Translations under genes and position numbers: made by a program
The notes under the pieces: model-generated
Database searches by the model: none
What the model was told of the DNA's origin: nothing
The model's input: only the letters and a program-made list of their open reading frames with translations
Part shown: positions 7,243 through 48,001 of the stretch, piece after piece
Layout of the letters: each line of letters opens with the position of its first letter
How positions within the stretch are numbered: the first letter of the stretch is position 1
DNA from: Candidatus Moraniibacteriota bacterium
GTDB taxonomy: Bacteria; Patescibacteriota; Minisyncoccia; Moranbacterales; UBA1568
Assembly (NCBI GenBank): GCA_028711705.1
Contig: JAQTRS010000003.1
Span: forward strand, 109,966-173,965
Direction of reading: 5' to 3'
Length of the DNA stretch: 64,000 nt

Positions 7243-7887
7243 ATGTCGGTCACTCGAGAAAAAGCTGCATTCTTCAATCAGAGTCTCAAGGCCCTTCTAT
7301 TCGCTATCGTCGTTGCCGGTATATCGGTGGTATTTGAGCCCGTTTCTGCGGCGCCGGCTTACTGCACCTCGTCCGCAGCGCTCTATCAATGCGTGGCCCC
7401 GGGAACAAATTGCGCTTCCCTTGGATCCACCATGGTGGGTGATTCGGCCTGCGACACTGCCTGCAACGGAGGTTGGAAGTATTGCGGTTCGCAAGCACCG
7501 ACACCGCCGCCAACAGCCGCTCCTGCATCAGCGACGGGTGTCAGTTCGGCTGCAGCAGCAGGAGGGGCGACGTGCGGTGCAGGATTTTCGGCGACGGCAG
7601 GCGTGTGCTTCCCGACCGATACGGGACTTCCGGATCCTGCCGATGGTATCGCGCAGATTTTGGGAAACTTCTTCAGTTGGCTGCTGATTATCTTTGGTTT
7701 CTTGGCTGTTGGAGCCTTCGTTATTTCCGGTATACAGTACCTTGTCTCCGCCGGGGATGAGGATATGGCTAAGACGGCGAAGCGCAATATGAAATGGTCT
7801 ATCATCGGTGTGATTGTCGGGCTTTCGGGCTGGATTATCATGCAGGCCGTCGCCAATGCCCTCACCGCGCAGACGTCGATCTTCTAG
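7243..7887 (+). CDS. VirB2/TrbC-like pilin paralog (Cys-rich ectodomain)
   Basis: Signal/TM segment, an ectodomain with about 9 Cys residues, a Pro/Ala/Thr linker, and a C-terminal hairpin VISGIQYLVSAGDEDMAKTAKRNMKWSIIGVIVG. Confidence 0.6.
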   Translation: MSVTREKAAFFNQSLKALLFAIVVAGISVVFEPVSAAPAYCTSSAALYQCVAPGTNCASLGSTMVGDSACDTACNGGWKYCGSQAPTPPPTAAPASATGVSSAAAAGGATCGAGFSATAGVCFPTDTGLPDPADGIAQILGNFFSWLLIIFGFLAVGAFVISGIQYLVSAGDEDMAKTAKRNMKWSIIGVIVGLSGWIIMQAVANALTAQTSIF

Positions 7888-7923: not shown

Positions 7924-8850
7924 ATGGTAACAAGCACCTGGCAAACATTTCTTCATAAGCGAAGCGCGACATTCTTATTGGCAGTCATGGTTATTGCTAG
8001 CGGATTTGTTGGCAATACGCAAGAAGCGCAGGCTGCGATAACCAAGGCTGCCTGTGAGGCACTCGGCACCGGATACAGCTGTTTGGCGGCGAGTGATCCT
8101 GCTGCTGCCGGACGAGAGAGTGTTGATCAGTGCAATATGAACACCGGGTTTCCTATAGTGACCGGGAACTGCTATAAGCCCTTGCCGCCGCCAAGCAATA
8201 CCGGACCAGGAACAACTACAGGTTCAGGAAGCAACACGGGACCAGGAACGTCTACGGGCCCTGGTAGTAATACTAGTCCGGGAACAACTACGGGAACAAC
8301 AACTGGAACCACCGCGACTGGAACCGGTGTTACCACCATATCCTTTCAGAATCCCTTGCAGTACAATACCGTACAAGATGTGCTAGGAAGCCTACTCACC
8401 ACGCTTCAGGGCATCATCGTGATCCTGTGCATCATCTTCATCATCATCGGCGCCATCCTCTACATCACCTCTGCCGGCGATAGCAAGCGGACGTCCGCCG
8501 GGAAGCTCGCCATCACCGCCGCCCTCATCGGATTGGCCATCGCCATCGCTGCTCCGTCATTCCTCAAGGAAATCTCGAATATCCTCGGATGGAACAATAC
8601 CCCTGCCAATGTGAGCGCTTCGCTTTCGATCTCGGCCATCCTTACCAATGTGCTCAACTTCCTTTTGGGCATCGTGGGTATCATCGCGATCATCATGCTC
8701 GTCATCGGTGCTATCATGTACCTTTCGGCGGCGGGGGATGAAGACCGTATCGATACCGGTAAGAGTATTGTGAAGTATTCCATTATCGGCATTATTATCG
8801 CTTTCTCAGCCTTGCTTCTCGTCAAGCAAGTCGCCACGTTTTTCCTATAA
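7924..8850 (+). CDS. pilin paralog with two tandem VirB2/TrbC-like hairpin domains
   Basis: Cys-containing N-terminal domain, a low-complexity linker (GPGTTTGSGSNTGPGTSTGPGSNTSPGTTTGTTTGTTATGTG), and then two successive pilin cores (ILYITSAGDSKRTSAGKLAI... and IMYLSAAGDEDRIDTGKSIVKYSIIG...). Confidence 0.6.
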   Translation: MVTSTWQTFLHKRSATFLLAVMVIASGFVGNTQEAQAAITKAACEALGTGYSCLAASDPAAAGRESVDQCNMNTGFPIVTGNCYKPLPPPSNTGPGTTTGSGSNTGPGTSTGPGSNTSPGTTTGTTTGTTATGTGVTTISFQNPLQYNTVQDVLGSLLTTLQGIIVILCIIFIIIGAILYITSAGDSKRTSAGKLAITAALIGLAIAIAAPSFLKEISNILGWNNTPANVSASLSISAILTNVLNFLLGIVGIIAIIMLVIGAIMYLSAAGDEDRIDTGKSIVKYSIIGIIIAFSALLLVKQVATFFL

Positions 8851-22405: not shown

Positions 22406-24778
22406 ATGAGCATGGAATCAACCCGACTGCCCATCGTGAGCCGAAGGGAAGTCGCTAACGACGTTTTCGAGGTTTCTTTCGGCCTTTCTAGAGCGGATTT
22501 TCATTTTCAGGCAGGCCAATATATCCGGGTGGTTATCCCGCATCTTTCGTATCCCGATGGGCGGGGGAATTTTCGCGATTTCTTCATCAGTTCATCGCCT
22601 AACAATCACGAGCATATTTCTATAGCCTTCAGAAATACGGGGAGCGGTTTCAAAAAGACGCTGCTTGAATTGCCTCTCGGGTCATCGGTGGTCGTGCGTG
22701 GGGCATATGGTCTGCTCGAGCTGCCTCAAGAGCATCATCAGGGCCTGGTATTCATCGCCTTCGGTATCGGTATTACCCCCTTTCTGAGCATGATTCGCCT
22801 TGCAGCCGAGCGGGGATATGCAGGGTACCTGACGCTTATCTGCGTGCATGATGACATAGATTCGGTGCCCTATCTTGATGAGTTGAAGCAACTTCAGGAA
22901 AAAATACCCCGTTTCATCCTGAGGCAGAAAAGGGCTCCTTTGGACGAGGAATTCTTGCGTATACAAACGACGCATTCCAAAGAGTCTTTGTGGTATATTT
23001 CCGGTCCGCCCGATCTGGCACGTGAGGCTTTCGATATGCTCTGCGGCCTCGGGGTGCCTTTGGGAAATATCGTTTCTGAGGAGATGCTGGGTTATGGCGA
23101 GGGGGTGCCTGTGACATCTTCCGCAGCGGCCCAGCCGTTGCCAACTGTAGGCAGTTCGCCGAATGACCATGCGTTTTTCTTGGATGCCAAGAAATTGCGG
23201 TCCATCATCGAAACCAGCGCCGAGGGCGTGGTTATCACCAATCCCGATGGACTCATCTTGTATGTCAATGCCGAGTGGCAGAACATTACCGGTTGGAAAA
23301 GCGACGATGTCGTGGGCAAGATGACGCCCCGCATCCTCAAATCGGGAAAAACCAGACCGGAGGAATACGAGAAGCTGTGGAAAACCATCAGGCGCGGCGA
23401 GATAGCTCATATCGACATTATCAATAAGCGCAAAAATGGCAATCTGTACTATGCCGAGGATATCATACTGCCCCTCAAGAACGATCAGGGTGAGGTAACG
23501 GAGTTCGTCGGCTTCCAGCGAGACGTTTCGGAGAAGCAGCGCTATATGAAGCAATTCATACTGCACTCCGAAGAGCTGGCTGAGCAGAACAAGTTCCTTG
23601 AGAACACGAAAAAGGCGATGCTCAATCTGCTCGAGGATTCTCAGGAACTGGAAAAAAACCTGGAGCTCGAGAAGGCGGCTATCAAGAAGGAAAAAGAGAA
23701 GTCGGAAGGCATTTTGCAGTTCCTGAAATCCATCGGTGATGGCGTGCTCGCTGTTGATCTGGATTCGAATATTATCTTTATGAACAAGATGGCGGAGAAT
23801 CTGTCTGGATACACGTTCGAGGAGGTACAAGGCAAATACTATACCGACGCCCTGCATTTCATCCTGGAAAAAAACCCCGATGTCTCCTACCCGCGCTTCG
23901 TCGAGCAGGTGATAAAGACGGGCGTGATCAATAAGCTGCCGAGCCACACCTCTTTGGTGAGGCGGGATGGTAGCATCGTTCCCGTGTCGGACAGCGCGGC
24001 GCCGATTCGTGATGCTTCGGGGGTTATTGTCGGTTGCATCATCGTATTCCAAGATGATACCAAGAAGCGCGAATTGGATCAGATGAAGGATGGTTTCATT
24101 TCGGTGGCGGCGCATCAGCTTCGGACGCCGCTGGGGGGTATGCGATGGAATATGGAGCTGCTGCTTTCCGAGGATGTCGGGGAACTTCCTGAGCAGGTGC
24201 GCGTCGAGCTTGAACAGCTCTACGAAAACAGCCAGCGCATGGTGACGCTGGTCAATGATCTTCTCAACACCTCGCGTATCGACAATGAGGTTTCCAGGGT
24301 GAAATACGAATCCGAATCCGCGGATATCATCACCCTGCTTCAGAAAGTGATACACGAGGTTGCCGATGAGGCGAAAAAACGTGCGGTGACCATACGATTC
24401 GCCAATGAAGGAACCTTCGATTCGGTCCGTATCGTTCCGAAAAATATATACGAAGCCTTCCAGAATCTGATCGTCAATGCCGTGAAGTACAGCGATGCGG
24501 GGGACACGGTGACGGTCGGGGTGGAGCAGCACAAAGAGGCTATGCGTGTCACGATCGAGGATACGGGAATCGGTATTCCGAAAGATCAGCAATTGAAGCT
24601 ATTCTCGAAGTTTTTCCGCGCTTCCAATGCTATCCTCAAGGAGACGGACGGCAGCGGCCTAGGGCTGAGCGTCGCGAAGTTTTTTATCGAAGAGAATGGG
24701 GGGCGGATCCTTTTCGAGAGCGAGGAGGGAAAGGGGACGACTTTTTATGTTGATTTGCCCCTGGCGGCGAAAAAGTGA
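22406..24778 (+). CDS. hybrid FNR-like flavoprotein domain - PAS - PAS - histidine kinase
   Basis: N-terminal 230 aa are paralogous to the 20030 protein (FQAGQYIRVV, RDFFISSSP, FGIGITP). These are followed by two PAS domains, a HisKA H-box (VAAHQLRTPLGGMRW) and HATPase_c (GSGLGLSVAKFF). Confidence 0.75.
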   Translation: MSMESTRLPIVSRREVANDVFEVSFGLSRADFHFQAGQYIRVVIPHLSYPDGRGNFRDFFISSSPNNHEHISIAFRNTGSGFKKTLLELPLGSSVVVRGAYGLLELPQEHHQGLVFIAFGIGITPFLSMIRLAAERGYAGYLTLICVHDDIDSVPYLDELKQLQEKIPRFILRQKRAPLDEEFLRIQTTHSKESLWYISGPPDLAREAFDMLCGLGVPLGNIVSEEMLGYGEGVPVTSSAAAQPLPTVGSSPNDHAFFLDAKKLRSIIETSAEGVVITNPDGLILYVNAEWQNITGWKSDDVVGKMTPRILKSGKTRPEEYEKLWKTIRRGEIAHIDIINKRKNGNLYYAEDIILPLKNDQGEVTEFVGFQRDVSEKQRYMKQFILHSEELAEQNKFLENTKKAMLNLLEDSQELEKNLELEKAAIKKEKEKSEGILQFLKSIGDGVLAVDLDSNIIFMNKMAENLSGYTFEEVQGKYYTDALHFILEKNPDVSYPRFVEQVIKTGVINKLPSHTSLVRRDGSIVPVSDSAAPIRDASGVIVGCIIVFQDDTKKRELDQMKDGFISVAAHQLRTPLGGMRWNMELLLSEDVGELPEQVRVELEQLYENSQRMVTLVNDLLNTSRIDNEVSRVKYESESADIITLLQKVIHEVADEAKKRAVTIRFANEGTFDSVRIVPKNIYEAFQNLIVNAVKYSDAGDTVTVGVEQHKEAMRVTIEDTGIGIPKDQQLKLFSKFFRASNAILKETDGSGLGLSVAKFFIEENGGRILFESEEGKGTTFYVDLPLAAKK

Positions 24779-25002
24779 CAAAAAAAGCGCTTTCCTGTAC
24801 ACTTGAGATGAGCTGGCGGCGCCAGATGCCGCATATTCACAAGCATATAAGAAATAGCCTATTTAAAGAATACGGGTATTTTTTATTGTGCGGCGTATCT
24901 GGGCAGTATGTTTGGTCGGAGCATTCTTTTGGATGTGTCGTTCGCGCATATGCCAGCGAGTTCGTTAACAATGTAGTATTTGAAACTTAGGTGGAGATAA
25001 CG

Positions 25003-26280
25003 ATGAGCAATGATAATTTTTATGAGCGTTTCGAGAATTTTCAATCTGATGTGAACCAGAAAAACGCGCTTGGAGGTGTTTTTTCTGTGACGGGATCTTC
25101 GCTTGGAGCGGAGGTTTCCATTAACATCGATGGGAATACGATGCCAGTAACGTCGTATATGAGCTTGGATTATTTGGGAATGGGTCAGGAGCCTGCCGTG
25201 ATAGAGAATTGTATACGTAATATCCGATCATTAGGTACCGGGTTTGCGAGTTCAAGAACGGTGATGGAATCTTCTCAGCATCAGGCTCTGGAGAATGCCC
25301 TTGCCGATTTTAAGCGGATGAAATCTTGCTTGCTTGTCAATACCGGCTATTTGGCGAATGTTATACTCCCGCAACTGATATTCGACGACGTCATAGTGAC
25401 GGGAGGCTATAAGTTGCGTCGACCCCGTAAGAAAACCGTGGTATGTATGGACAGATTGACGCATGCATCTCTTCTTTCTACGTTGGCGACAATGAAAGGA
25501 AAGCGGGTGGTTGATAATGTGAAGAAGTATGATCACTTGGATTATGACTCCCTTCAGTCGATGTTGGATGAATATAAAAGCGATGATGTTCAGAAATTTA
25601 TCTTTACCGACAGCTTGTTTTCTATGGGAGGAGATTTTGCGAATGTGCGCCTATTGCTTGATTTTGCGAAGCATTATGATGCCATATTGGTTATCGATAA
25701 TGCGCATGCGGATGGCGTGTATGGTGCTGAAGGCAGAGGATACCTGGAAGCGCAGGGAATAACGAGTCAGGATGATCTGAAATATATCATCCAGACAGGC
25801 ACCTTAAGCAAGGCCATATGCGCTCTGGGCGGACATATCACATTCCCGTCATCGAGCCCTGTGGATCTGGCAAAGTTTTCCCAGTGGGAATTCATTTTTT
25901 CTGTGGCCATACCGACCTTTCTCGCGGCGACATGCGTTCATTCCATCAGGCTTATTCGTGGGGATATGGGTGATAAGAAGCGAGAACAGCTTCATATTCT
26001 TTCAGCTATCTTGCGATCGCGATTGCAGGAGAGAGGATTTAATATCTTGCGATCGACATCGCATATTATCCCCATTGTGATCGGAACGGCAGATACATGC
26101 CTTGCTGTTCATGATTATTTATTAAGAGAACACCGTATATGGATCGGGCCGATCCGATGGCCGGCCGTATCTGAAAACGGGGCGCTCCTGCGATGCGCTG
26201 TCACTGCGAATCATAGCGAGGAAAATATCGGCGAACTTATCGAGGCATTGGAGAAGGCGAGAAATCAATTCAGTTTTTAG
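25003..26280 (+). CDS. alpha-oxoamine synthase family PLP-dependent acyltransferase (CqsA/LqsA/BioF/KBL/SPT family)
   Basis: RBS aggtgg, then ATG at 25003. AOS-family fold with PLP-lysine motif GTLSKAICALGGH, and DNAHADGVYG and SLFSMGGD motifs. Confidence 0.8.
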   Translation: MSNDNFYERFENFQSDVNQKNALGGVFSVTGSSLGAEVSINIDGNTMPVTSYMSLDYLGMGQEPAVIENCIRNIRSLGTGFASSRTVMESSQHQALENALADFKRMKSCLLVNTGYLANVILPQLIFDDVIVTGGYKLRRPRKKTVVCMDRLTHASLLSTLATMKGKRVVDNVKKYDHLDYDSLQSMLDEYKSDDVQKFIFTDSLFSMGGDFANVRLLLDFAKHYDAILVIDNAHADGVYGAEGRGYLEAQGITSQDDLKYIIQTGTLSKAICALGGHITFPSSSPVDLAKFSQWEFIFSVAIPTFLAATCVHSIRLIRGDMGDKKREQLHILSAILRSRLQERGFNILRSTSHIIPIVIGTADTCLAVHDYLLREHRIWIGPIRWPAVSENGALLRCAVTANHSEENIGELIEALEKARNQFSF

Positions 26281-26339
26281 ATTTCGAAGCATGGTGTTAT
26301 GTGTTACAATTCAATACATAATACCATGCCTTTTTATTT

Positions 26340-27977
26340 ATGATGCAGATTATTTTTGGAGCCGCTGCTTTGAATTTTTTGGTGGGAGTCCTTCTTCTCA
26401 TCCAGAGGCGGCGTACGAAGGAAATAATCGCTTTCGGTGTCTTCTCTTTGATAACCGGCGTTTGGGGTCTATCGAATTTTCTTATTTACTATTACAACAG
26501 CGGCGTGTTTTTGGAGTCGGCCTATGCCTTCGGTGCCCTTACGGCGTCTTCGATGTTGGCCTGGTCATTTTTATATAAGCAAGGGTCGAATCGCACGAAC
26601 GTGGCGATTTTTATATATGCCTTGGGCATACTCATTTTCTGCCTTTCTTACGTCAATGGGTATGCTATTGGTGATATTCGTGGTATCACGGCAAGCGGCG
26701 TCGATGCCGATCCAGGATTATTTTCCGACGAGTATTCACTCTTTGTACTGGTGTCGCTGCTCTGGTCCTTGGCGAACGTGTTTTCGGTGTTCAGGAAATC
26801 TATCGGTTTTGAGCGGAAGCAGGCCCGATTGGTATTGGTTGGTCTGTTCGTATTCGTCGGAGTGACCATTATCGTGAGCGCTATCTTGCCGATTTTCGGT
26901 ATTTTGGGGTATACCAATCTCGACAGCCCGAGTTCTTTGATTTTCGTCATCTTCGTGGCATTCGCTATCGTGCGGTATCACTTCTTGGAGACACGGGTGA
27001 TTCTCGCGCAGGTGTTGGTGGGTGCTTTGGCTACCGTGTCGATCATCCAGCTTCTGAGTTCGACGACCGTGTTTGATGTGGTCATTACGATGATATCGCT
27101 TTGTATCGTCTTGGGTTTGGGGATATTTCTTGTACGGAGCGTGTTTAATGATATCCAGCACAAGAACGAGCTGCAGCGGGTGAATGTGCAGCTCAAGCGG
27201 AGCAAGCAGCGCTTGGGACAGGTAAACGAGCACCTAATGCAGCTCGATCAGGCCAAAACGGACTTTATCAATATCGCTTCCCATCAGCTCCGCACGCCTT
27301 TGGGAAGTATGCGTTGGAGCATGGAGATGATTCTTGCGGATGAGATGGGACCGATATCGGATTCAGCCAAGGATGCGCTCCGGGAGATATATGAGAATAA
27401 TCAGCGTATGGGCGATCTGGTGAATGATTTGTTGAGCGTGGCTCGCATCGAGCAGGGCAAGGTTGTGGAAAAAGCCGTAGCGACGGATATCGCGTCCGTT
27501 ATCAGCGAGGCGGTCAAGATGATGCAGCCCGAGGCGAAGCACAGGCAGATCACATTGCGATTCGATATGCCGACCAAGGATATCCCATCGATCATGGTGG
27601 CGCCGAAACGCTTTTTTGAGGTGATTCAAAACCTTATTTCCAACGCGATTAAGTACAATCGCCCAGAGGGAATGGTGATCGTCGCGATGGAAGTATCGAC
27701 ACGGCATATGCGCATTAGCGTGACGGACACAGGCATCGGTATCCCTCAATCGGAGCATGCTAAGATATTTTCGAAGTTTTTCCGTGCCGGGAACGCCTTA
27801 TCCACGAATACCGAAGGCACGGGACTGGGTCTGTTCGTGGCGAAGTCCTTTGTGGAGGAGAATGGCGGTATCATACGCTTCAAAAGCGAGGAGGGTGTGG
27901 GAACCACGTTCATTATCGAGTTGCCGATAACGGTGCCGACCGCGCAAGAGGATCAGCGCCAGGGCGAAGCGCGGTGA
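26340..27977 (+). CDS. sensor histidine kinase with N-terminal 7-8 TM domain
   Basis: About 250 aa of consecutive TM helices, then a HisKA H-box (IASHQLRTPLGSMRW) and HATPase_c (GTGLGLFVAKSF). There is no periplasmic domain and no receiver. Confidence 0.8.
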   Translation: MMQIIFGAAALNFLVGVLLLIQRRRTKEIIAFGVFSLITGVWGLSNFLIYYYNSGVFLESAYAFGALTASSMLAWSFLYKQGSNRTNVAIFIYALGILIFCLSYVNGYAIGDIRGITASGVDADPGLFSDEYSLFVLVSLLWSLANVFSVFRKSIGFERKQARLVLVGLFVFVGVTIIVSAILPIFGILGYTNLDSPSSLIFVIFVAFAIVRYHFLETRVILAQVLVGALATVSIIQLLSSTTVFDVVITMISLCIVLGLGIFLVRSVFNDIQHKNELQRVNVQLKRSKQRLGQVNEHLMQLDQAKTDFINIASHQLRTPLGSMRWSMEMILADEMGPISDSAKDALREIYENNQRMGDLVNDLLSVARIEQGKVVEKAVATDIASVISEAVKMMQPEAKHRQITLRFDMPTKDIPSIMVAPKRFFEVIQNLISNAIKYNRPEGMVIVAMEVSTRHMRISVTDTGIGIPQSEHAKIFSKFFRAGNALSTNTEGTGLGLFVAKSFVEENGGIIRFKSEEGVGTTFIIELPITVPTAQEDQRQGEAR

Positions 27978-28040
27978 TTTTATGGAGAAATGAGAGACAT
28001 CTGGTATACTTGGAAGAGAGACACATTAATATAAATATGT

Positions 28041-28442
28041 ATGACCGAAATAGTGCAGGGTCAAGATGCGCCAAAGGTTTCTCTTTTGGTGGTCGAAGAC
28101 GACAAGTTCTACGCTAATATCTATCGTGTGAAATTCACCAAGGAAGGATATGATATCCGCTTGGCAGGCGATGGCGATGAGGCGCTCAAGATGGCGCGCG
28201 AGCGCAAGCCCGATCTTATTTTGTTGGATCTGATTATGCCGAAAAAGGACGGGTTCGAGACGCTTCGGGAATTGAAAGCCGATACGAATCTTAAGGATAT
28301 TCGGGTAATCGTTTTTTCCAATCTCAGTCAGGATGAGGACATCAAGCGCGTAAAAGATGCTGGCGCATTCGACTATATCGTCAAGGCTAACATTTCGCTT
28401 CAGGATATGGTGGCCCGTGTGAAGGGGTATGTGGCCCAGTAA
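28041..28442 (+). CDS. single-domain response regulator (CheY-like receiver)
   Basis: 133 aa with acidic pocket LVVEDD, phospho-acceptor D in LILLDLIMPKKDG, and a conserved Lys near the C-terminus. No output domain. Confidence 0.85.
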   Translation: MTEIVQGQDAPKVSLLVVEDDKFYANIYRVKFTKEGYDIRLAGDGDEALKMARERKPDLILLDLIMPKKDGFETLRELKADTNLKDIRVIVFSNLSQDEDIKRVKDAGAFDYIVKANISLQDMVARVKGYVAQ

Positions 28443-28459: not shown

Positions 28460-30175
28460 ATGCCAGAACAACAACCATCGGAAGAACTTATACCGGACGA
28501 GGTACTGTACCAGTTATTGCTTGAGACAGGATCGGTACCGCAGGCATCGCTTGATGTCGCCGCGCAGCGTGCTAAGGAGGAGCATACTTCTTTGTATGAG
28601 GCTATTTTATGGCATGATTTCGTGTCCGATGAGAAACTCTGCCGATTGGCGGCCGATTTTTTGCAGATGCCCTTCGTGCTGCTTGCGGGAATCGCCATCG
28701 AGGAAGATGTCTTGCGAACGATTCCGGAAGTGGTTGCCAAGAAAAACGCCATCATCGTTTTTCGGAAAGATACGGATGGCTTGCATATCGCGACCAAGCA
28801 GCCAGATAATGTTCAGATTATCGATTTTATACGAAGAAAGACAGGGATGTCCGTTACAGTGTATCTTTCGATGTCCCAAGATATAGCGAACGCACTCCTT
28901 TTATACGGAAAAAATATCACCAAAGCATTTGACGATATTATACACGAGAGTCTACTTGATGCGAAAGGGTCGTCGAGCGATCAGAATGCGTTGCCTATCA
29001 TCAAGATAGTAGACAATATCCTCTCGTATGCGTATCAGAACAAGTCCTCTGACGTGCATATCGAACCGCGAGAAGAAGGGTCTTTGGTGCGCTTTCGTAT
29101 CGATGGCATCTTGCATGATATCGTTACGCTTCCGCTTGAGATCCATCCGCAGATCGTGTCGCGCATAAAAGTGCTAGCAAAGCTCCGTACGGATGAACAT
29201 CAGGCGCCTCATGATGGCAAGATCCGTTTTGAATCGGAGGGTGAAGCTTTGGACATCCGTGTGTCGGTGGTGCCGGTAACGGAAGGGGAGAAAATAGTGA
29301 TGCGCCTCCTCTCGGAGCGTTCGCGTCAGTTTTCTTTGTCCAATCTCGGTTTCGGATCGAGCGATTTGGCTAAGGTGAACGAAGCCTATAACAAGCCATA
29401 CGGAACTATCCTGGTTACCGGACCGACCGGTTGTGGAAAGACTACTACGTTGTACTCCATATTGAAGCTTCTTAATAATCGCAAGGTGAATATAATGACC
29501 ATCGAGGATCCGGTGGAATATGATATGGAAGGCGTCAATCAGATTCAGGTGAATACTAAGGCGAATCTTACGTTTGCGACCGGATTGCGGAGTATTCTCC
29601 GTCAGGATCCCAACATCATTTTGGTGGGTGAAATACGTGACAAAGAAACGGCTGGTATCGCGATCAATCTGGCTATGACCGGACACCTCGTACTTTCTAC
29701 GCTGCACACCAATGATTCGGCGACAGCGGTTCCTCGTATGATCGATATGGATATCGAACCATTCCTACTCTCTTCGACTATCAATGTCATTGTCGCCCAG
29801 CGTCTCGTGAGAAAGATTCATGATGCTTGCCGTGTCAGCGAAGAGGTTTCTATTGAAGATCTGAACCAACGCTTGGGAGCTGCGCTCGTACATGAAGTAT
29901 TCGGTGATGCGAGCGAGTCTGGCAAAAGTGTGCGTCTGTACAGAGGAAAAGGATGCGATTTGTGCCATCAGACAGGATATCAGGGGCGCATCGGCGTGTT
30001 TGAGGTTATGACTATTGATGATAAGTTGCGCACCGCTATCACGAATCGCAAGGATGCGGCGACTATTGCCGATATCGCTATCGCTTCCGGGATGACGACG
30101 ATGCTTGAGGATGGTTTGGAGAAGGTAAAGCAAGGGATAACGACTTTGGATGAGGTGTTGAGGGTTATCAAATAG
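28460..30175 (+). CDS. pilB: type IV pilus assembly ATPase PilB (GspE family)
   Basis: N-terminal GspII_E domain, Walker A GPTGCGKTTT, His box, Walker B/Asp box and a tetracysteine-like motif (CDLCHQTG). 571 aa. Confidence 0.9.
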   Translation: MPEQQPSEELIPDEVLYQLLLETGSVPQASLDVAAQRAKEEHTSLYEAILWHDFVSDEKLCRLAADFLQMPFVLLAGIAIEEDVLRTIPEVVAKKNAIIVFRKDTDGLHIATKQPDNVQIIDFIRRKTGMSVTVYLSMSQDIANALLLYGKNITKAFDDIIHESLLDAKGSSSDQNALPIIKIVDNILSYAYQNKSSDVHIEPREEGSLVRFRIDGILHDIVTLPLEIHPQIVSRIKVLAKLRTDEHQAPHDGKIRFESEGEALDIRVSVVPVTEGEKIVMRLLSERSRQFSLSNLGFGSSDLAKVNEAYNKPYGTILVTGPTGCGKTTTLYSILKLLNNRKVNIMTIEDPVEYDMEGVNQIQVNTKANLTFATGLRSILRQDPNIILVGEIRDKETAGIAINLAMTGHLVLSTLHTNDSATAVPRMIDMDIEPFLLSSTINVIVAQRLVRKIHDACRVSEEVSIEDLNQRLGAALVHEVFGDASESGKSVRLYRGKGCDLCHQTGYQGRIGVFEVMTIDDKLRTAITNRKDAATIADIAIASGMTTMLEDGLEKVKQGITTLDEVLRVIK

Positions 30176-30286
30176 CAGCCGAAATGTTTAGCTTTCGATC
30201 GACGGGCGATCGAGTCCGTTTGTGGATTGTGTGATATGATGCATCGGACCGGTATTGAGAGGAGTTTCATTTTTTAACGCATATGT

Positions 30287-31345
30287 ATGACTCTTTTTTC
30301 GCGGGCGAGTTTTTTGGATATCTTGTTGTTTACAAAACACCTTTCGGTGATGGTAAAGAGCGGCATTACAGTAGCCGAGTCAGTCAAATCCCTCAAGCAT
30401 CAGGCGAAAACAGGCGCTTTCAAAAGGATTCTCGATCAAGTATCGGCCGACATCGAAAACGGCGATCCTCTCGCGAAGGCACTTGCGAAGTATCCTCAGG
30501 CTTTCAGTCATTTCTATATCAATCTTATCGCTATCGGTGAAGAGTCGGGAGTGCTTCAGGAGAATTTGGATTTCCTGTCCAAGCAGTTGAGCAAGGAATA
30601 CGCGCTTCGAAAGAAAGTACAGGGCGTGCTCCTGTATCCGGCGATCGTGCTGACGGCCGCCTTTGTGATCAGCGCCCTGGTGAGCATCTTCGTTTTGCCG
30701 AAACTTGTGAATCTTTTTGAGTCTTTCGATGTCGTTTTGCCGTTATCGACGCGTATCCTCCTATCCATCGCTCATGTCATGCAATCGCATGGAGTGATCA
30801 TATTCGTAACGATTCTTGCGGCGAGCATTTTTTTTCGGGTTTTGGCTTTCGTGCCACAGATCAGAAAATGGTATCACTGGTTATTTTTGAGTATGCCGAT
30901 TATCGGGCCATTCCTGCGAAATGTATACATTTCTTCCTCGTGTCGTGATTTGGGAATGATGCTTCAGGCGGGATTATCGATCACTCGTGCGCTGCGAGTG
31001 GAGTATGACACGATAAACAATCTCGTATTCAAGGAATATGTGAAGAGTTTGCAACTTTCTATAGCAAGGGGCGGGACTTTGTCGGGCGAATTATTGACGG
31101 GGAATTTTTCGAAGATACCGCCTTTGGTTTCGAAAATGATTGAGGTCGGAGAAGGGACCGGAAAACTCGAAGAATCGCTTCTATATCTGGGGGATTTCTT
31201 CGAAGAGGAGATTGATAATACATCGAAGAATTTTTCCACTGTTTTGGAACCGATCTTGCTTTTATGTATCGGATTGGTGGTCGCATTTGTCGCGTTGGCG
31301 ATCATATCGCCGATTTATTCATTGACGGGATCTGTCCATAGGTAA
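30287..31345 (+). CDS. pilC: type IV pilus inner-membrane platform protein PilC (GspF family)
   Basis: Two GspF-type repeats and three TM segments. 352 aa. Confidence 0.85.
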   Translation: MTLFSRASFLDILLFTKHLSVMVKSGITVAESVKSLKHQAKTGAFKRILDQVSADIENGDPLAKALAKYPQAFSHFYINLIAIGEESGVLQENLDFLSKQLSKEYALRKKVQGVLLYPAIVLTAAFVISALVSIFVLPKLVNLFESFDVVLPLSTRILLSIAHVMQSHGVIIFVTILAASIFFRVLAFVPQIRKWYHWLFLSMPIIGPFLRNVYISSSCRDLGMMLQAGLSITRALRVEYDTINNLVFKEYVKSLQLSIARGGTLSGELLTGNFSKIPPLVSKMIEVGEGTGKLEESLLYLGDFFEEEIDNTSKNFSTVLEPILLLCIGLVVAFVALAIISPIYSLTGSVHR

Positions 31346-31356
31346 ACTGAGTTGCT

Positions 31357-31785
31357 ATGAAAAAAGGATTCACGCTTGTCGAGCTATTATTGGTCATCGC
31401 GCTCATTATGATTGTCGGGATGCTTTCGGCAGCTTTTTATACCCGATTCCTGATGCAGAATAATGTTATCAATACGACTACGCAATTGGTCGGCAGCCTT
31501 CGGAAAGCGCAGATGTATAGTATGATGGGAAAACGGGGCGGTTCCTGGGGTGTGGCGGCTTTTCCTGGATCGATAGTGCTGTTTCAGGGTAATTCATATG
31601 CGTCGCGCGATGAGGCTTTGGATGAAGTGTTTGTCACGAGGCCCGATATTTCTACGGGAGATTTTTCGGAAATAGTCTTTGCGAAGACGACTGGACTTCC
31701 TGATATCGCACCGACTATCGTTATTTCCGAAGGTGGCGAGACGCGTACGTTGACGGTCAGTAATCAGGGTATAGTGAGCCAATAA
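31357..31785 (+). CDS. prepilin-type N-terminal cleavage/methylation domain protein (minor pilin)
   Basis: MKKG-FTLVELLLVIALIMIV: class III signal with Gly at -1 and Glu at +5. Confidence 0.7.
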   Translation: MKKGFTLVELLLVIALIMIVGMLSAAFYTRFLMQNNVINTTTQLVGSLRKAQMYSMMGKRGGSWGVAAFPGSIVLFQGNSYASRDEALDEVFVTRPDISTGDFSEIVFAKTTGLPDIAPTIVISEGGETRTLTVSNQGIVSQ

Positions 31786-31807
31786 CTATATGACAAGGAG
31801 ATTGAAA

Positions 31808-32284
31808 ATGAATACGCGTGAGTGCAAGGGATTCTCCGTTTTGGAGATCATTTTGGCCGTGGGAATTTTCGTGGTTATGGTTTCGGGGATGGTGATCGCC
31901 GTGCTTTCAGGCATGGAGACGAACCGTCTCGGACAAGAGGAAACGGTCGCGACGGAATATACGACGGAGGGGATAGAGGCAGCCCGATCGATACGTAATC
32001 TGAATTTTTCGGCATTGAATGATACTTCCGGAACTGGCATCGATCAAGTTTCCGGCGTGTGGTCTTTTTCTGGAAACGAAAACGTGCTTGATGGGAAATA
32101 TACGAGGGTTATTTCGATCGAGAGCGTGCGGCGGGATGGTTCCGGTAATATCGTTGAGAGCGGCGGCGGTATCGATCCGGATACGAAAAAAGTGACGGTG
32201 ACGACATCATGGGCTATTTCTTCATCGAGATATGACTCGGTGGTACTGATGACATATCTTACCAACTGGAAAGCTCCGATATGA
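31808..32284 (+). CDS. prepilin-type minor pilin
   Basis: RBS aaggag, then ATG at 31808. Class III signal KG-FSVLEIILAVGIFVV. Confidence 0.65.
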   Translation: MNTRECKGFSVLEIILAVGIFVVMVSGMVIAVLSGMETNRLGQEETVATEYTTEGIEAARSIRNLNFSALNDTSGTGIDQVSGVWSFSGNENVLDGKYTRVISIESVRRDGSGNIVESGGGIDPDTKKVTVTTSWAISSSRYDSVVLMTYLTNWKAPI

Positions 32285-32829
32285 TTATGAAACATACACA
32301 GCATACTATGCGGAGAGGATTCACTTTTATCGAGGTGCTTTTGTATATGGGCATCGTTTCATTGATGCTCACAGCGATCGTTTCTTTTGCATGGGTCATT
32401 ATCGATGCGGGAGTGAAGAGCGCTACGCAACAGGAAGTTTACGCCACGACAAGATATGTGAGCGAGCGGCTGATGTATGAAATCAGGAACGCTGCCGGTA
32501 TCGATGTTTCCGATTTCGATGTGAATCTTGCAAGTGATGAGACGAAAAATTGTTCTTTGGCGCAAGAGGGAACAAGTGAGTCGCTCCGTATCTTCGTGTC
32601 GAATAACCAAGTATTTATGAGGCTCCCTTCTTTGGAGATTGTCCCTTTGCAATCGACGGATACGAAAGTGACGAATCTTACCTTTACAGACTATTCTTCC
32701 GGTGATAGCAAGGCAAAATACGTCGGGTTTGTTTTGACGGTAGAGTCGAATTATCCGGGTGCAGCAGGACGGCAGGAATATCAGGAAAGCGTTACGATAC
32801 GATCCGGTGTCGAAGTGAGAAGTCATTAA
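32281..32829 (+). CDS. prepilin-type minor pilin
   Basis: Class III signal RRG-FTFIEVLLYMGIVSLML. The start overlaps the previous stop (ATGA). Confidence 0.65.
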   Translation: MIMKHTQHTMRRGFTFIEVLLYMGIVSLMLTAIVSFAWVIIDAGVKSATQQEVYATTRYVSERLMYEIRNAAGIDVSDFDVNLASDETKNCSLAQEGTSESLRIFVSNNQVFMRLPSLEIVPLQSTDTKVTNLTFTDYSSGDSKAKYVGFVLTVESNYPGAAGRQEYQESVTIRSGVEVRSH

Positions 32830-32879
32830 TCGTGTGCGAAGAGCGGGGTATTTTGTGACTTATTATAACAAACGAAGGT

Positions 32880-33254
32880 ATGAACAAAGGTTTTATTGCC
32901 ATGACAACCGTATTGATCCTTTCTGTGGCGATGGTCGCGATTATGACCACGGTGTCTTTGCTCTCTATCGGGGAATCGCAATCAGGATTCGCTTTGATGA
33001 AAGGGGAGGGCGCTTTACAATTTTCGGAAGGTTGCGCCGAGGATGCGCTGCTGCGTATTCGTGCCGATGAAGCCTATATTGGAGGCACTTTTTCTCATCC
33101 GGAAGGCGAATGCACGGCGGATATCGCTTCGGACGGGAGTATTAAAACAATCACGGTACGATCGAACGCTGTTGATTATAGCCGAAGCATCTCGATCATG
33201 CTTGAGCGGACGGTGACAGGTATTACGCTCATAAGCTGGCACGAGATACCGTAA
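32880..33254 (+). CDS. pilin-like membrane-anchored protein (PilX-like minor pilin candidate)
   Basis: MNKG-FIAMTTVLILSVAMVAIM hydrophobic N-terminus, lacking Glu at +5. Assigned by operon position. Confidence 0.4.
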   Translation: MNKGFIAMTTVLILSVAMVAIMTTVSLLSIGESQSGFALMKGEGALQFSEGCAEDALLRIRADEAYIGGTFSHPEGECTADIASDGSIKTITVRSNAVDYSRSISIMLERTVTGITLISWHEIP

Positions 33255-33337
33255 GCAATTGCCTTAATTTTCATTGTTATGGAAAGCTTGAGTAACACAG
33301 GGTTTATAAATTTCCAGAAAAACGATGAAGATATGGT

Positions 33338-34711
33338 ATGATATCGTATATGGGCATATTTTCAAAACAAAAAAACATCATCTTTATTTCCCATTCACGC
33401 TTGCGTGCAGTGCAGGTGAATCTGGGGCGTGCCAATGCAGGGAAGGTGATCGAGGATATCGTATGGAACAAAGAGACATTGCCATCGATACTTTCGGTTA
33501 TCCGTACAAAAATTGGGAGCGATATCCAGCTCGCACTAAGCGAAGATTTGGTATACGTCGTAAGTTTCGCTTTGAAAAACGCGACGAAATACACCCGTCT
33601 GACGATAAAGCAGGAGGCTTCGAGCTTTATCCCTGAGAATTTAGACGAGGTGCCTTGGGATTTCCGCAGTATCGCTGCTATCGTCGGCGATAAGCGTATC
33701 GGTGTCAGCAAGGGGGTGCAGGTAGCAGCGGTTTCGAAAGTTTTCCTGCACGACATCGCGCCGGCATTCGTATCGGCCGGTTTCGTGGTGGAGGCGATGG
33801 AGGCTGAATCATGCGCTTTAGCAAGACTGATGCATGATCAGGCCAGTCCGATACTTATCGTGCATACGGACCATGATAGAACCCTGCTAGTTATTCTTGA
33901 GCGCGGCGTCGTAATGGCAACACAAAATTTTGCGGAATCCATACATTCGGATGATATCGAGAGGTTCATAAGTTCGGCGCAGAAACATTTTTCATTGCGT
34001 ATCGCATCGGTTATTTTTTCCGAAGAATCGACGAAATCGCTCGGCGATGTGAGGGATTCGCTTCAGAGCAAGGGCTTTTCGGTGCAAGAGGCTTCTTTTG
34101 ACCCTATTCTCGGTCTTGCTTTGAAAAAAGATATCAGAGGAAATGATGCAGACGTATTGAATGTCAATCTGCTACCTCAAGAGAAACGAAACTTTTTGAG
34201 CCTCATACGGAGCCCTCGTGAAAAGCGATTACTGATCATTTTTTTTATTGTTTTTATCCTCGGATCGGTTGCAGTATCTGGGATGTTTATGTTTAATCGT
34301 TCAGTAAAGGCACCGATAAAGCAGGAGTCTGTCATAGCGGATATTCCTATTGAGGTTGCGAAACCCTCTGTGCCGCAAGATAATGCAGACGGTCTTGTGC
34401 CTCCATCCGGATCTGGTGCTGTCGCTGATTATGCGATCAGCATTCTTAATGGAAGTGGCATCCGGGGTGAGGCAGCCGGAGTAGAGAAGTTGGTTCGTGC
34501 GGAAGGCGCGACAAAGGTCCGTATCGGCAATGCAGATAACAATTCGTATACCAAAACCAAGATACGGGCAAAAAAAACCGTGCCTCCTTCGATGTCTCAA
34601 TCGATTGTGAAGGTATTGTCTTCGCGTTACGTTGTGGAAGATGTCGAAATATTGGATGATGGTGCGGAAGATGATATTATGGTAATAGTTGGCAGTCAAA
34701 AAAACGAATAA
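33338..34711 (+). CDS. PilM-PilN fusion protein with C-terminal LytR_C-like domain
   Basis: About 280 aa of cytoplasmic PilM-like region, then the PilN hallmark LNVNLLPQEKR immediately before a TM helix (LLIIFFIVFILGSVAVSGMF). The C-terminal segment (ADYAISILNGSGIRGEAAGVEKLV...VKVLSSRY) resembles the LytR_C domain. Confidence 0.55.
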   Translation: MISYMGIFSKQKNIIFISHSRLRAVQVNLGRANAGKVIEDIVWNKETLPSILSVIRTKIGSDIQLALSEDLVYVVSFALKNATKYTRLTIKQEASSFIPENLDEVPWDFRSIAAIVGDKRIGVSKGVQVAAVSKVFLHDIAPAFVSAGFVVEAMEAESCALARLMHDQASPILIVHTDHDRTLLVILERGVVMATQNFAESIHSDDIERFISSAQKHFSLRIASVIFSEESTKSLGDVRDSLQSKGFSVQEASFDPILGLALKKDIRGNDADVLNVNLLPQEKRNFLSLIRSPREKRLLIIFFIVFILGSVAVSGMFMFNRSVKAPIKQESVIADIPIEVAKPSVPQDNADGLVPPSGSGAVADYAISILNGSGIRGEAAGVEKLVRAEGATKVRIGNADNNSYTKTKIRAKKTVPPSMSQSIVKVLSSRYVVEDVEILDDGAEDDIMVIVGSQKNE

Positions 34712-34724
34712 AAGGATATATTTT

Positions 34725-35201
34725 ATGAAGCAGTCTGGTTTTCGGACAGAAAAAGGATTCACTCTTATCGAACTTCTTTTGGTGATAGGGATTATTTCAG
34801 TTTTGGCAGTCGTTGTGTTCGTTGCGCTTGATCCCGCGAAACGATTTGCGGATGCGCGTGATGCGAGGCGAAATTCCGATGTCCAAAATATCCTCAGCGC
34901 TATCCATCAATATATTATCGACAACAAAGGCGCTTTGCCTTCCGGACTCGGTACGACTGAAAATCAGATCGGCACGGCTACTTCCGGATGCGGCCTCGTG
35001 GCGGGCGAGTGCAATGTTGGTGCCACCGCCTGTCTCGATATGTCCGCTAATTTGGCGAAGTATCTCAAGTCGATACCGACCGATCCGCAGAACGGTACGG
35101 CTGGTACGACGCATTATTCCGTTCAAACAGATGTTAATGGCATCGTGACCGTACGCGCATGTGATACGGAAGGAACGACTGCTATCTCGATTTCGCGCTG
35201 A
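34725..35201 (+). CDS. type IV pilin (major pilin candidate)
   Basis: Class III signal KG-FTLIELLLVIGIISVLAVVVFVALDPAKRF. C-terminal Cys pair (CGLVAGECNVGATAC) for a disulfide loop. Paralog of the 48002 gene. Confidence 0.75.
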   Translation: MKQSGFRTEKGFTLIELLLVIGIISVLAVVVFVALDPAKRFADARDARRNSDVQNILSAIHQYIIDNKGALPSGLGTTENQIGTATSGCGLVAGECNVGATACLDMSANLAKYLKSIPTDPQNGTAGTTHYSVQTDVNGIVTVRACDTEGTTAISISR

Positions 35202-42195: not shown

Positions 42196-45100
42196 ATGAA
42201 GGAGGAAAATCATACAAAAATGAAGAACACATATCGATTCCGGTTTCTGGCATTTCTCGCTATCTTTTTAGTGGTTGGTTTTTTTGTTTCTACTCAGGAG
42301 TATTCGTTTGCGGCGACCGGTACGAACAAGAAAATAAATTTTCAAGGAAAGGTGGTCAATAGCAACGGAACTAATGTTGCTAACGGATCATACGGCTTTA
42401 TTTTCAGCATTTATACCGTTTCAAGCGGTGGCGCGAATGTGTGGACGGAAAGCAAATCCCTGACCGTGACCGACGGTATTTTCCAGACTGACTTAGGGGA
42501 TGTTACTACGCTTCCAGGATCTATCGACTTCAATACGGACAACATTTACCTTGGTATCAATTTCAACGGTGATGGCGAGATGTCGCCACGTGTGCAATTC
42601 GATGCCGTTCCTCAGGCATTCAACGCTCAGAAAGTAGCAGGACTTACAGTAACCGACACGACGGGCACACTGACGATTCCGAATGGTAAAACCATTTCTT
42701 TCGCGGATACTTTTTCAACTTCCGGTGCTTTCGCAACGACGCTTACTGCAACCGGAACAACCACTGTGACGCTTCCGACCACCGGGACACTTGCGACGTT
42801 ATCAGGCAGTGAGATTTTGAACAACAAAACCATCGGAAGCGCAGGCCTTATTTTTTCGGGAGCGGCTACGGATATCACGACTACTTCTGGAGAATCATTG
42901 GTGATTGTTGCGGCCGGTGCAGGAACGGTAGATATTCAGGACGCCACTACCGTTGACTCGCTTACCGCGGATACGGGGGGTATTTCTATTGCCGCCGGTC
43001 AATCGTATACGGGTTCGGGCGCGGTGACGCTTTCATCAGGAGGTGCTGCCGGTCTGACGATCGATTCTGCATCAGATGTGCTTACAGTGGCCACGGGAGA
43101 CTATCTTGCACTGAGTCATTCCGGCGTTGCGAGCGCCGCGGCAGGATATATCTGGTATGATTCGGGGGATAATAAATTCAAGATCAACGAAAACGGTACG
43201 ACCAAGACGTTATGTAATCTTACAGACGGTGGCTGCGGATCGGGTGGCGCGAGCGATCTGCAGACAACGTATGGTAATGATGCTGATGGATCGAATGCTA
43301 CGATTTCACTGACGGCTGCCGATGATGGTTTGGTCTTCACTAATCCGACCTCCGGTGGTACGGATGCGAGCTCTTTCCTTGCTTATTTCAACCAGCAGAA
43401 TACGACGGCCGCTGTATCGGCAGTCGATATTACTCAGGCTTCCAATGCTTCCAATGCGGTCAATATTACAGCCAATGCTATCGATGGCGAGATAGGACTT
43501 GATATCACGGCTAACGGTCTGACGTCGGGTAAGGGTATAGATGTCTCGTCATCATCGACTGCATTTACAGGCAATCTTTCCAATATATCTTTGACAGGAT
43601 CCAGTGCTGCTAATACCGGTAATGTGCTTGCGGTGTCAAATACTGGTACGGCGAATGCTAACACCTCGTTTTTTATCAATCATCAGGCAACTGGAACTGG
43701 CAATCTCGCTATGCGCGTGGATGATCAATCAAGTGATGCGACGCCGTTCGTTATCGATGGCAATGGCAATGTCGGCATCCAAACGAGTGCGCCTACAGAT
43801 GCTCTTCAGGTGGGAAGTGCGACGAATCGTGCCAATATGACAGCTTATGGTGATATTACGGCGGAAGGATATGATGTCCAACGCAGTCTGGCCGGCATCA
43901 TTGATATCTTTGTGTATGATACGACGCGTGATGCGGATGGCGGGGAATGGCGCAACTCGATCATTTCACAGCAGATGTCTTGGGCGACGGAAACCAAAGA
44001 TGATGGTATCGGCGATGCTTGCGATATCGCAGCTGATGATCGCTGCGGCAAGTCGATTTTTCCTCGTAAGGCGATTATAGCTACTACAGCGAGCGGCCTG
44101 TATATTTTTGATGGTGCGGACAATTCGCTATGGATGAAGTTTACCCAAGCAGGTACGTATGCTTTGGGTGCAGATACGAATAATAACCCGACAGGAGTGG
44201 GTGCGCAGAATGGTGTCATAGTAGTCGGAACCAATGGCACATCGGCTACCGGTATGTACGCTTTCGATTTTAAGCAGGATGCGATGTATCGTTATGATGC
44301 AACGAATCGCGTGCAGGGTGATAAAAATATCGGCAATCGAAATTCGACGGTGTCCTACGCGACCAATGCGAATACAAATTTTGCTCTTGTGAACTCGGTT
44401 GTTAATGATGTTTCGATCGCACTCATCACTTCATCGACTGAAGGTATGATCAACACGTTGACGCTACCATTAGATAGCGCAACAAGTCCGATGCGAGGCG
44501 TGACGCTTATTGCTGCAGCGACGGATACGGGGGTTTCCGTCGTCAATACTGCCAATCAAAGAGTGTTTAGTTATTCGGAAACGACAAACGATGACTATAA
44601 TCAGGTTGTCATCACAAGCCGTGGAAGGATGTATGCGACCAATGAGACCCAGCAGCAATTAGAAGAATGGAGAAATATCGATAGGGATGTGGCATCGGAA
44701 CTCAACGGAAACCCGGATCGATTCTATGATCAGACTGTCGGACGATCACCTATTACAACAGGAACGGCACCGACTATTTCCACTTCGCCCGGAACCCTTG
44801 CCGTTATCGAACGAAACTCAGCTGCTCGCGAATCAGCTGCTACAACCCTTCTTGAGACTGGTGATATCGTTTTTGTCGGTACGGATCAGGGTTTGGCCGA
44901 AGTGCATACTTCGGGAGGAAGCCTTGTTGGCGCCGCATGGTCCAAAATAACAACTTCGACGGTAGCGACTCCGTATATGGTCGGCGCTGCACGCTCAGTC
45001 TATCTTTTTGAGGAGGCTGCCGGTTCGACGGTCGCAGCAAGTTCTATCGGTGCGGCCGGTACGACCAATAACCCACTTAGATCAGCAGTGACAGGAACTG

Positions 45101-47970: not shown

Positions 47971-48001
47971 ATAAAATGTTTTGGAGGTATACTATAGACA
48001 T

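Follow-up and report, generated by a model that had tools for sequence, protein, structure and literature searches.

In the quorum-sensing systems CqsA/CqsS of Vibrio and LqsA/LqsS/LqsR of Legionella, a pyridoxal 5'-phosphate (PLP)-dependent enzyme of the alpha-oxoamine synthase (AOS) superfamily is encoded beside a histidine kinase with a purely membrane-embedded sensor, and direct interaction between CqsA and CqsS has recently been shown, with cryo-EM entries for CqsS (9WXL and related) (PMC13174287). Among bacteria of the candidate phyla radiation (CPR), Bernard et al. (2020, mSystems) listed 362 'CqsA homologues', 51 of them beside kinases that match an in-house hidden Markov model (HMM) of the CqsS N-terminus, and their Table S4 includes AOS/kinase pairs from about nine Moranbacteria genomes (e.g., KKT32983/KKT32982 and OGI39280/OGI39281), proposed as candidate alpha-hydroxyketone quorum sensing (PMC7567580). 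Here we analyze a 64,000-nucleotide stretch of a Candidatus Moraniibacteriota genome (contig JAQTRS010000003.1, positions 109,966 to 173,965; hereinafter the window), in which genes for an AOS, a multi-transmembrane (TM) histidine kinase and a stand-alone receiver lie head to tail on the + strand immediately before pilB, pilC and pilin genes. The earlier note on this DNA, made from the sequence alone, read the three genes as a CqsA/LqsA-type autoinducer module and held that no such circuit had been described in this kind of lineage; the latter point is contradicted by Table S4, and both the signalling idea and the lineage have already been published as a computational prediction (PMC7567580). 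The published adjacencies and the window have in common the phylum, the gene pair and the alpha-hydroxyketone interpretation, and from the table entries (phylum, approximately 26% identity to CqsA, BioF as best hit, adjacent kinase) we infer that the Moranbacteria proteins listed there are orthologous to those of the window. Unlike in the present analysis, the clade to which the window AOS belongs was not separated in that work from KBL-type homologues encoded beside tdh, which dominate the list, and neither a family-membership test nor the receiver-pilus link, the HisKA_7TM assignment or the spacer architecture was included. New here are the distinctness of this clade from the KBL-type homologues, the failure of both proteins to qualify as members of the Cqs/Lqs families, the assignment of the sensor to HisKA_7TM, the non-specificity of the published HMM, the architecture of the AOS-kinase junction and a link to a receiver and pilus genes that is confined to a sub-lineage.

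The conserved unit at this locus consists of the AOS and kinase genes. In each of the nine contexts in which an AOS orthologue was found (38-59% identity; the window, L001, L002/L003, L004, L005, L006, L008, L100 and L101), the kinase is the next gene on the same strand, 59-101 nt away, a recurrence that exceeds chance. The AOS-linked kinases, about 530-545 aa long or truncated by a contig end, form a single orthologue group with 37-86% identical TM domains; a second HisKA_7TM kinase encoded in the same contigs, where it is paired with a double-receiver protein, is 17-26% identical to this group. Between the window and the distant group, the two partners have diverged to a comparable extent (37-44% identity for the TM domain, 38-44% for the AOS), and the flanking genes change completely around them: FNR, CHASE4 and PAS-kinase genes upstream and the receiver and pilB downstream in the window and L001; a glycosyltransferase (GT4), epimerase and Wzz-like cluster upstream and an ABC transporter downstream in L002/L003; and a GT4 cluster upstream and an AdoMet_dc gene downstream in L004, L005, L006, L008 and L101. 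Uniform adjacency and matched divergence amid changing flanks are the genomic hallmark of a synthase and its receptor. Modules of this kind typically consist of an enzyme and a kinase with no response regulator beside them, and functional coupling of the AOS and the kinase is likely. Of the signalling role that the earlier note derived from synteny, the conserved pair thus stands, whereas homology to Cqs/Lqs fails on both proteins.

The AOS itself could not be assigned to any of the characterized families. The best-scoring NCBIfam model is BioF (TIGR00858), with 251 bits against a cut-off of 426, followed by ALAS (TIGR01821; 216 bits, cut-off 338), KBL (NF005394; 199 bits, cut-off 460) and the SPT models (at most 178 bits, cut-offs of at least 500), and the CqsA/LqsA model (NF005526) ranks eighth of 11 AOS models (145 bits, cut-off 428); no curated cut-off for BioF, KBL, ALAS, SPT or CqsA/LqsA is exceeded. 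In comparison with PDB sequences, ALAS (148 bits) is followed by BioF, KBL and SPT, with CqsA last (67 bits); the window enzyme shares 30% identity with both BioF and ALAS, but 23% with CqsA, which is the most distant of the AOS relatives. A search of 5.8 billion proteins recovered only 12 cluster representatives with 38-59% identity, after which identity dropped to 33%; such rarity of the clade fits an accessory function. A metagenome scan seeded with the clade alignment returned a single locus (L102) and no further members: L102 proved to be an ordinary KBL-like gene on a soil contig, without a kinase, and was rejected. Nor does the genomic setting point to a housekeeping role. Among the approximately 55 open reading frames (ORFs) of the window that were scanned there are no biotin, threonine-degradation, haem, acyl carrier protein (ACP) or acyl-CoA-ligase genes, so that the lack of a biotin context claimed before is borne out (no bio, tdh or hem genes within the 64 kb); bioA, bioB and bioD were found neither in the window nor in any related locus examined, and tdh does not adjoin the AOS gene, unlike in the KBL-type CPR homologues of Table S4 (PMC7567580).

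For phylogenetic placement, a neighbour-joining (NJ) tree with 200 bootstraps was built from these proteins, annotated hemA, bioF (taken from within bioA-F-D), kbl (taken next to tdh) and SPT-type genes, and eight CqsA-type sequences from Vibrio, Halomonas, Celerinatantimonas, Streptomyces, Cupriavidus, Ralstonia and Tistrella (the V. cholerae reference being 100% identical to PDB 2wk8; LqsA and JqsA were not in the set). Bootstrap support is 100% for the monophyly of the Moranbacteria AOS clade and likewise for that of the CqsA clade; the two are mutually exclusive, and the Moranbacteria clade is nested in none of BioF, KBL, ALAS, SPT or CqsA. A split uniting the Moranbacteria clade with CqsA appears in 49% of the bootstraps; because it joins the two longest branches, long-branch attraction is the likely cause. 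Collectively, these comparisons place the window AOS, as judged from sequence, as the founding member of a small clade specific to Moranbacteria and Parcubacteria, with BioF and ALAS as its apparent nearest known relatives, and outside the CqsA/LqsA family. The earlier note was accordingly right to set the enzyme apart from BioF, KBL, ALAS and SPT, but the CqsA/LqsA-type synthase that it proposed instead finds no support.

The protein is 100% identical to MDD5083947.1 from a Candidatus Moranbacteria metagenome-assembled genome, which is annotated in the 425-aa form that begins at an ATG (25003) with GGAG 8 nt upstream; the 429-aa length given previously results from an alternative GTG at 24991. 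An AlphaFold model (pLDDT 94.4) confidently adopts the AOS fold, with Foldseek TM-scores of 0.85-0.92 to ALAS, BioF, KBL and SPT; the top 50 matches do not include CqsA. The predicted PLP-lysine motif GTLSKAICALGG was confirmed, and H154, D232, H235, K270 and R397 are invariant in an alignment of 63 AOS proteins and also conserved in an alignment with reference enzymes, so the enzyme looks catalytically intact and active. The window AOS thus has in common with the housekeeping enzymes (BioF, ALAS, KBL and SPT) the fold and the catalytic His, Asp, His, Lys and Arg, but differs from them in scoring below all cut-offs, in carrying three insertions, in lacking pathway neighbours and in being always paired with a kinase. 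A PLP-dependent AOS fold with catalytic Lys, His and Asp also characterizes CqsA/LqsA, but it marks the superfamily and no particular family. Besides the insertions, clade-specific features include an Asp two residues past the catalytic His and the change of the L-N-H-A-S motif to L-(T/S)-H-A-S. Residues of the ALAS motif T-R-N-I bind succinyl-CoA in the R. capsulatus ALAS structure; the corresponding residues of the window AOS read S-R-T-V. The window AOS has the 'H-S' following the catalytic His and the 'FS' after the Lys region in common with SPT, KBL and CqsA and not with BioF and ALAS.

We also observed that a small AdoMet_dc (S-adenosylmethionine (SAM) decarboxylase-like) gene follows the pair in four of the loci at L004 11061-11456, L005 8206-8604, L006 7902-8315 and L101 3145-3540. 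V. cholerae CqsA uses SAM as the amino donor. Given that the AdoMet_dc loci are mutually syntenic and that the gene is absent from the window ORFs scanned, no conclusion on SAM is drawn, and the link may be historical.

The second member of the pair is a histidine kinase without a receiver domain. In its AlphaFold model (pLDDT 91.5), residues 2-266 form nine TM helices, the sole element outside the membrane being a beta hairpin of about 16 residues (110-125), and helix nine continues straight into the DHp helix. Hence the description of the sensor as consecutive TM helices without a periplasmic domain holds, and an input domain wholly embedded in the membrane suits a lipophilic ligand. The N-terminus of the window kinase has no Pfam match, including to HisKA_7TM (PF16927, gathering score 28.6 bits). 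However, its orthologues in L002, L004 and L005 exceed that score (46, 34 and 51 bits, respectively) with matches that span 219 of the 224 profile positions, and 52 of the 81 phmmer relatives of the sensor also match (best E value 7e-22), so that the window kinase is assigned to this family by transitive homology. HisKA_7TM figures in the literature only as a sensor domain of wide occurrence whose ligand is not known (PMC5847659), and an exhaustive search showed that 1100 cluster representatives carry the sensor domain found here. The window kinase follows the family in the order of the 7TM region, HisKA and HATPase_c, and departs from it in two extra TM helices after the 7TM core and in the AOS neighbour, which is specific to its orthologue group.

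No relationship of this sensor to CqsS or LqsS was detected. In hmmsearch, the window kinase scored -7 bits against a CqsS/LqsS-like N-terminal profile of 64 sequences (62 distinct Vibrionaceae CqsS plus the Cupriavidus and Ralstonia kinases; Legionella LqsS and LqsT were not in it), and hhalign of a deep kinase profile (160 sequences, Neff 6.2) against CqsS gave a probability of 0.6% (P 0.09), near the reversed-sequence control. A match of a seven-sequence kinase profile to CqsS TM4-5 (probability 24-26%, P 8e-4) was lost with the 160-sequence profile and was discarded. Conversely, V. cholerae CqsS does not match HisKA_7TM, and the topologies differ: nine TM helices in 266 aa and no receiver in the window kinase against six helices in about 170 aa and a C-terminal receiver in CqsS. 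The Cupriavidus and Ralstonia kinases served as a positive control, matching Vibrio CqsS by BLAST with E values of 1e-23 to 1e-27. The Vibrionaceae sequences came from a genome-contig scan with CqsA, which returned Vibrionaceae and relatives but not Legionella; the divergent CqsA/sensor pairs were taken from plasmid and chromid records. In L090 4938-7544 (Cupriavidus sp. EM10 chromid) and L091 4941-7525 (Ralstonia sp. RRA.1 chromid), a CqsA-type gene (42-45% identity to V. cholerae CqsA) precedes a same-strand, non-hybrid kinase of 434-437 aa with a CqsS-like N-terminus. Both regions are unannotated in the plasmid records; a Streptomyces plasmid (L089) carries an annotated cqsA with no kinase nearby. 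A CqsS profile extended through DHp yielded no score above approximately 15 bits, and the 57-bit matches of Bernard et al. were not reproduced. The in-house CqsS HMM of that study also matches kinases beside LuxI homologues with similar scores (PMC7567580), and is thus not specific. Contrary to what had been proposed, the sensor is not CqsS/LqsS-like and is assigned, by way of its orthologues, to HisKA_7TM. As regards organization, the window agrees with the beta-proteobacterial Cqs members, in which synthase and kinase follow each other on the same strand, and differs from Vibrio, where cqsA and cqsS are convergent and CqsS is a hybrid kinase. A receiver protein is encoded nearby, as is LqsR in the Lqs system; unlike LqsR, the one in the window is a bare 133-aa domain that heads a pilus operon. 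LqsR is a larger, atypical response regulator.

Coordinates of the features in the window (+ strand for the T4SS_pilin ORFs and for all features from 22406 onward)
Feature	Position	Basis or remark
ORFs with T4SS_pilin domain	3675-4586, 5591-6100, 6737-7201, 7243-7887, 7924-8850	PF18895
Small free-standing FNR-like oxidoreductase, FAD/NAD-binding, 239 aa	20030-20749	Pfam; also in L001
CHASE4-HAMP-PAS protein without output domain, 513 aa	20810-22351	Pfam; also in L001
Cytoplasmic histidine kinase, 790 aa (FNR-like FAD/NAD domain, two PAS, HisKA, HATPase_c)	22406-24778	Pfam; also in L001
Conserved 12-nt motif GTTCGTTAACAA, 32-43 nt 5' of AOS start	24960..24971	Exact-match search
AOS, PLP-dependent, fold type I, 425 aa	25003..26280	Pfam Aminotran_1_2, E 2e-32
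PLP-lysine motif GTLSKAICALGG, residues 266-277, Schiff-base K270	25798..25833	63-sequence AOS alignment
AOS-kinase spacer: intrinsic-terminator-like 17-bp hairpin followed by CTTTTTATTT (T-run)	26289..26339	Sequence folding
Extended -10-like TGTTACAAT at hairpin apex	26302-26310	Motif match TGNTAYAMT
Sensor histidine kinase, 545 aa, HisKA and HATPase_c, no receiver domain	26340..27977	Pfam; AlphaFold model
Kinase nine-TM sensor, aa 1-266	26340-27137	AlphaFold model
Kinase coiled-coil linker, then DHp with H315, then HATPase_c	27282-27284 (H315)	Domain layout
Extended -10-like TGGTATACT in kinase-receiver spacer	28002..28010	L001 has TGGTATAAT at the equivalent place
Stand-alone CheY-like receiver, 133 aa, no output domain	28041..28442	Pfam Response_reg only, E 9e-25
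pilB ATPase	28460-30175	T2SSE (E 5e-126), MshEN
pilC platform	30287-31345	T2SSF (E 5e-53)
Four small prepilin-like ORFs, two matching N_methyl	Within 28460..35201	Pfam
457-aa ORF with LytR_C domain	33338-34711	Pfam
Further pilin	34689-35201	Part of the pilus cluster

The junction between the two genes is as conserved as their adjacency: all nine orthologous spacers (window, L001, L002, L004, L005, L006, L008, L100 and L101) combine a strong hairpin (dG -23 to -39 kcal/mol) and a T-run with a TGnTAyAmT element at the apex, and an architecture kept in all of them argues for selection on this junction. The window contains 17 copies of TGNTAYAMT where 4.8 are expected (none of 100 shuffles reached 17), most of them a few tens of nucleotides 5' of + strand genes, e.g., at 627, 5418, 11112, 26302, 28002, 36395 and 50486, and the motif is probably the dominant promoter -10 element of this organism. 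The AOS-kinase spacer accordingly resembles a terminator in which a promoter is nested, an arrangement that would uncouple transcription of the two genes, and the site between the kinase and the receiver is a probable promoter of the receiver-pilB unit. From these signals we infer three transcription units, namely the AOS gene ending at the hairpin, the kinase gene transcribed from the nested promoter, and the receiver-pilB unit onward; a single operon of the three genes is improbable. Upstream of the AOS gene, the 12-mer GTTCGTTMACAA has its single occurrence in the window and is found once 5' of the AOS gene in L002 (L002/L003; 7914-7925), L004 (7947-7958), L005 (5077-5088) and L008 (4413-4424), but nowhere else in the 102 fetched loci (an estimated 1.2 Mb or so). 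This candidate regulatory site may be an operator, leader or attenuator. In the GT4-type loci, GTTCGTTMACAA lies in the loop of a short hairpin with a T-run, 3' of a -10-like site TGTGTAGAAT.

The third gene, a CheY-like receiver as stated in the earlier note, retains the canonical residues D20/D21, D63 (the phospho-acceptor), S93 and K115 and has its nearest solved relatives among the receiver domains of the OmpR family, DivK and CheY. It is 80% identical to its counterpart in L001, where pilB starts 6 nt downstream (17 nt in the window). The genes that follow make up a type IV pilus operon, with a PilB-type ATPase, a PilC platform and N_methyl domains in three downstream ORFs. Three further signalling genes lie directly 5' of the AOS gene and extend the island ahead of the pilus cluster. 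The FNR-PAS kinase among them and the nine-TM kinase share 47% identity in their cores and are close to identical in the H-box and DHp helix 1, and the former is a probable second input to the 133-aa receiver. This sensor set is unusual and suggests redox-sensing input.

Elsewhere in the window, in which the + strand carries nearly all genes, housekeeping genes predominate (NusA, pyrophosphatase, trigger factor, ClpP, RNase Y and primase). Five of six consecutive + strand ORFs between 3675 and 8850 have a C-terminal T4SS_pilin domain (PF18895, TrbC/VirB2-like), the ORF 4606-5295 within the array having no Pfam match; an array of conjugative-pilin-like paralogues is unusual for a small genome. 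Just 3' of the pilus cluster, a protein of 1924 aa that carries a Laminin_G_3/ConA-like lectin domain (42196-47970), directly followed by an N_methyl prepilin-like ORF (47981-48478), is a candidate pilus-associated adhesin. Very long - strand ORFs antisense to confirmed + strand genes, such as 22682-24592 (636 aa), have low-complexity, Arg/His-rich translations and look like non-coding shadow ORFs that are unsuited to gene annotation.

The intact, rare and lineage-specific AOS, devoid of pathway partners, together with the membrane-buried sensor favours a synthase/receptor module, and the locus plausibly represents a lineage-specific two-gene signalling module of Moranbacteria and related Parcubacteria. 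Under this scenario, the divergent AOS would condense an amino donor with an acyl thioester into a small hydrophobic amino-ketone or hydroxy-ketone-like product, which, or the effect of which, the nine-TM kinase would detect within the membrane. In this particular genome, the nine-TM and FNR-PAS kinases would most likely both phosphorylate the receiver, which, having no DNA-binding domain, would act not on transcription but post-translationally and directly on the machinery of the pilus, much as PilG/PilH or CheY do. That a module analogous rather than homologous to Cqs/Lqs feeds a receiver that modulates the pilus is a reading we hold tentatively, at a little short of an even chance. Its more ambitious form, in which a new AOS subfamily makes an amino-ketone-type autoinducer for a HisKA_7TM receptor and a bare receiver relays the signal to the type IV pilus motor, so that independently evolved CPR signalling links cell density or host-derived acyl supply to attachment, appears somewhat unlikely. 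Several observations weigh against these proposals. The nine contexts represent no more than two or three independent kinds of flank within one lineage of related organisms; the receiver and pilB follow the pair only in the window and its closest relative L001, and in the distant-group loci no receiver adjoins the pair, so that the control or co-regulation of the pilus suggested earlier comes down to adjacency in two genomes. The conserved terminator-like hairpin makes co-transcription of the AOS and kinase genes doubtful. Homology of both proteins to characterized Cqs/Lqs components is at the superfamily level only, and most of the 1100 representatives of HisKA_7TM, a large family for which no ligand is known, are surely not encoded next to an AOS. 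On the chemical side, acyl-CoA/ACP metabolism is generally scant in CPR bacteria, and the window shows no gene for acyl activation. All members of the clade have Leu or Phe in place of the Asn of the S-N-D-Y-L motif, which is universal otherwise and contacts the substrate carboxylate in BioF, ALAS and SPT, so the amino substrate, its binding mode or the chemistry may differ from those of known AOS. Gene content, catalytic residues, topology, adjacency and the separate terminator/promoter signals are observations; the product, its recognition by the kinase, phosphotransfer to this receiver and the effect on the pilus are predictions.

The same pair could serve envelope-lipid homeostasis, the AOS making a long-chain base or amino-lipid precursor as SPT does and the kinase sensing the membrane state as DesK does, so that together they tune the envelope. 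The SPT-type 'H-S' and 'FS' motifs, the all-membrane sensor and the neighbourhood (the distant-group pair ends a GT4/epimerase/Wzz-like surface-polysaccharide cluster, and the window pair adjoins pilus genes) fit this picture, but the SPT scores are far below their cut-offs, ceramide synthase, reductase and ACP partners were seen in none of the loci, and so rare a clade would be a strange source of a structural lipid. CPR bacteria are, moreover, thought to scavenge lipids, and we consider this explanation unlikely. Alternatively, the coupling could be illusory, with the AOS a metabolic or salvage enzyme of BioF/KBL-like ancestry and altered specificity and the kinase an inherited neighbour. 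Consistent with that, no model scores higher than BioF, the two genes are set apart by a terminator-like hairpin and a distinct promoter-like site, and all contexts come from one lineage, those of the GT4 type being mutually syntenic. Yet the adjacency survives approximately 60% sequence divergence and the complete change of flanks between the window and GT4 types, pathway partners are lacking and no family cut-off is passed, so that this view, too, seems improbable. Finally, the genes might be a very divergent but true Cqs/Lqs system, with remote orthologues of CqsA/LqsA and CqsS/LqsS and an alpha-hydroxyketone product. The published CqsS N-terminal HMM matches the Moranbacteria AOS-adjacent kinases with E values of 2e-13 to 1e-19 (PMC7567580), the tree gave the split with CqsA mentioned above, the seven-sequence profile aligned weakly with CqsS TM4-5, and both clades lack the Asn of L-N-H-A-S. 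Against this, the HMM is not specific, the split is probably a long-branch artefact, and the profile match vanished with deeper sampling, in line with the negative hmmsearch score; the CqsA/LqsA model scores below its cut-off, CqsA is the least similar AOS by sequence and is missing from the top 50 Foldseek matches, the sensors differ in helix number and length, and true family members are readily found across classes. We therefore regard remote orthology as highly unlikely and prefer a synthase/receptor module that is analogous to Cqs/Lqs.

Most CPR/Patescibacteria are epibionts that have not been cultured, and little is known of the ways in which they sense their partners and control attachment; their lifestyle is thought to depend centrally on type IV pili. 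The compact, conserved synthase/kinase pair before a receiver-pilB unit offers a concrete, testable hypothesis in this respect. In print, these genes have been labelled 'CqsA/CqsS homologues', a designation that fails the family-level tests, and predictions of alpha-hydroxyketone chemistry should not be transferred to them. If the AOS product were indeed the ligand of the kinase, the module would provide the first evidence of self-made chemical signalling in the CPR radiation, and HisKA_7TM, a widespread sensor family, would gain its first ligand.

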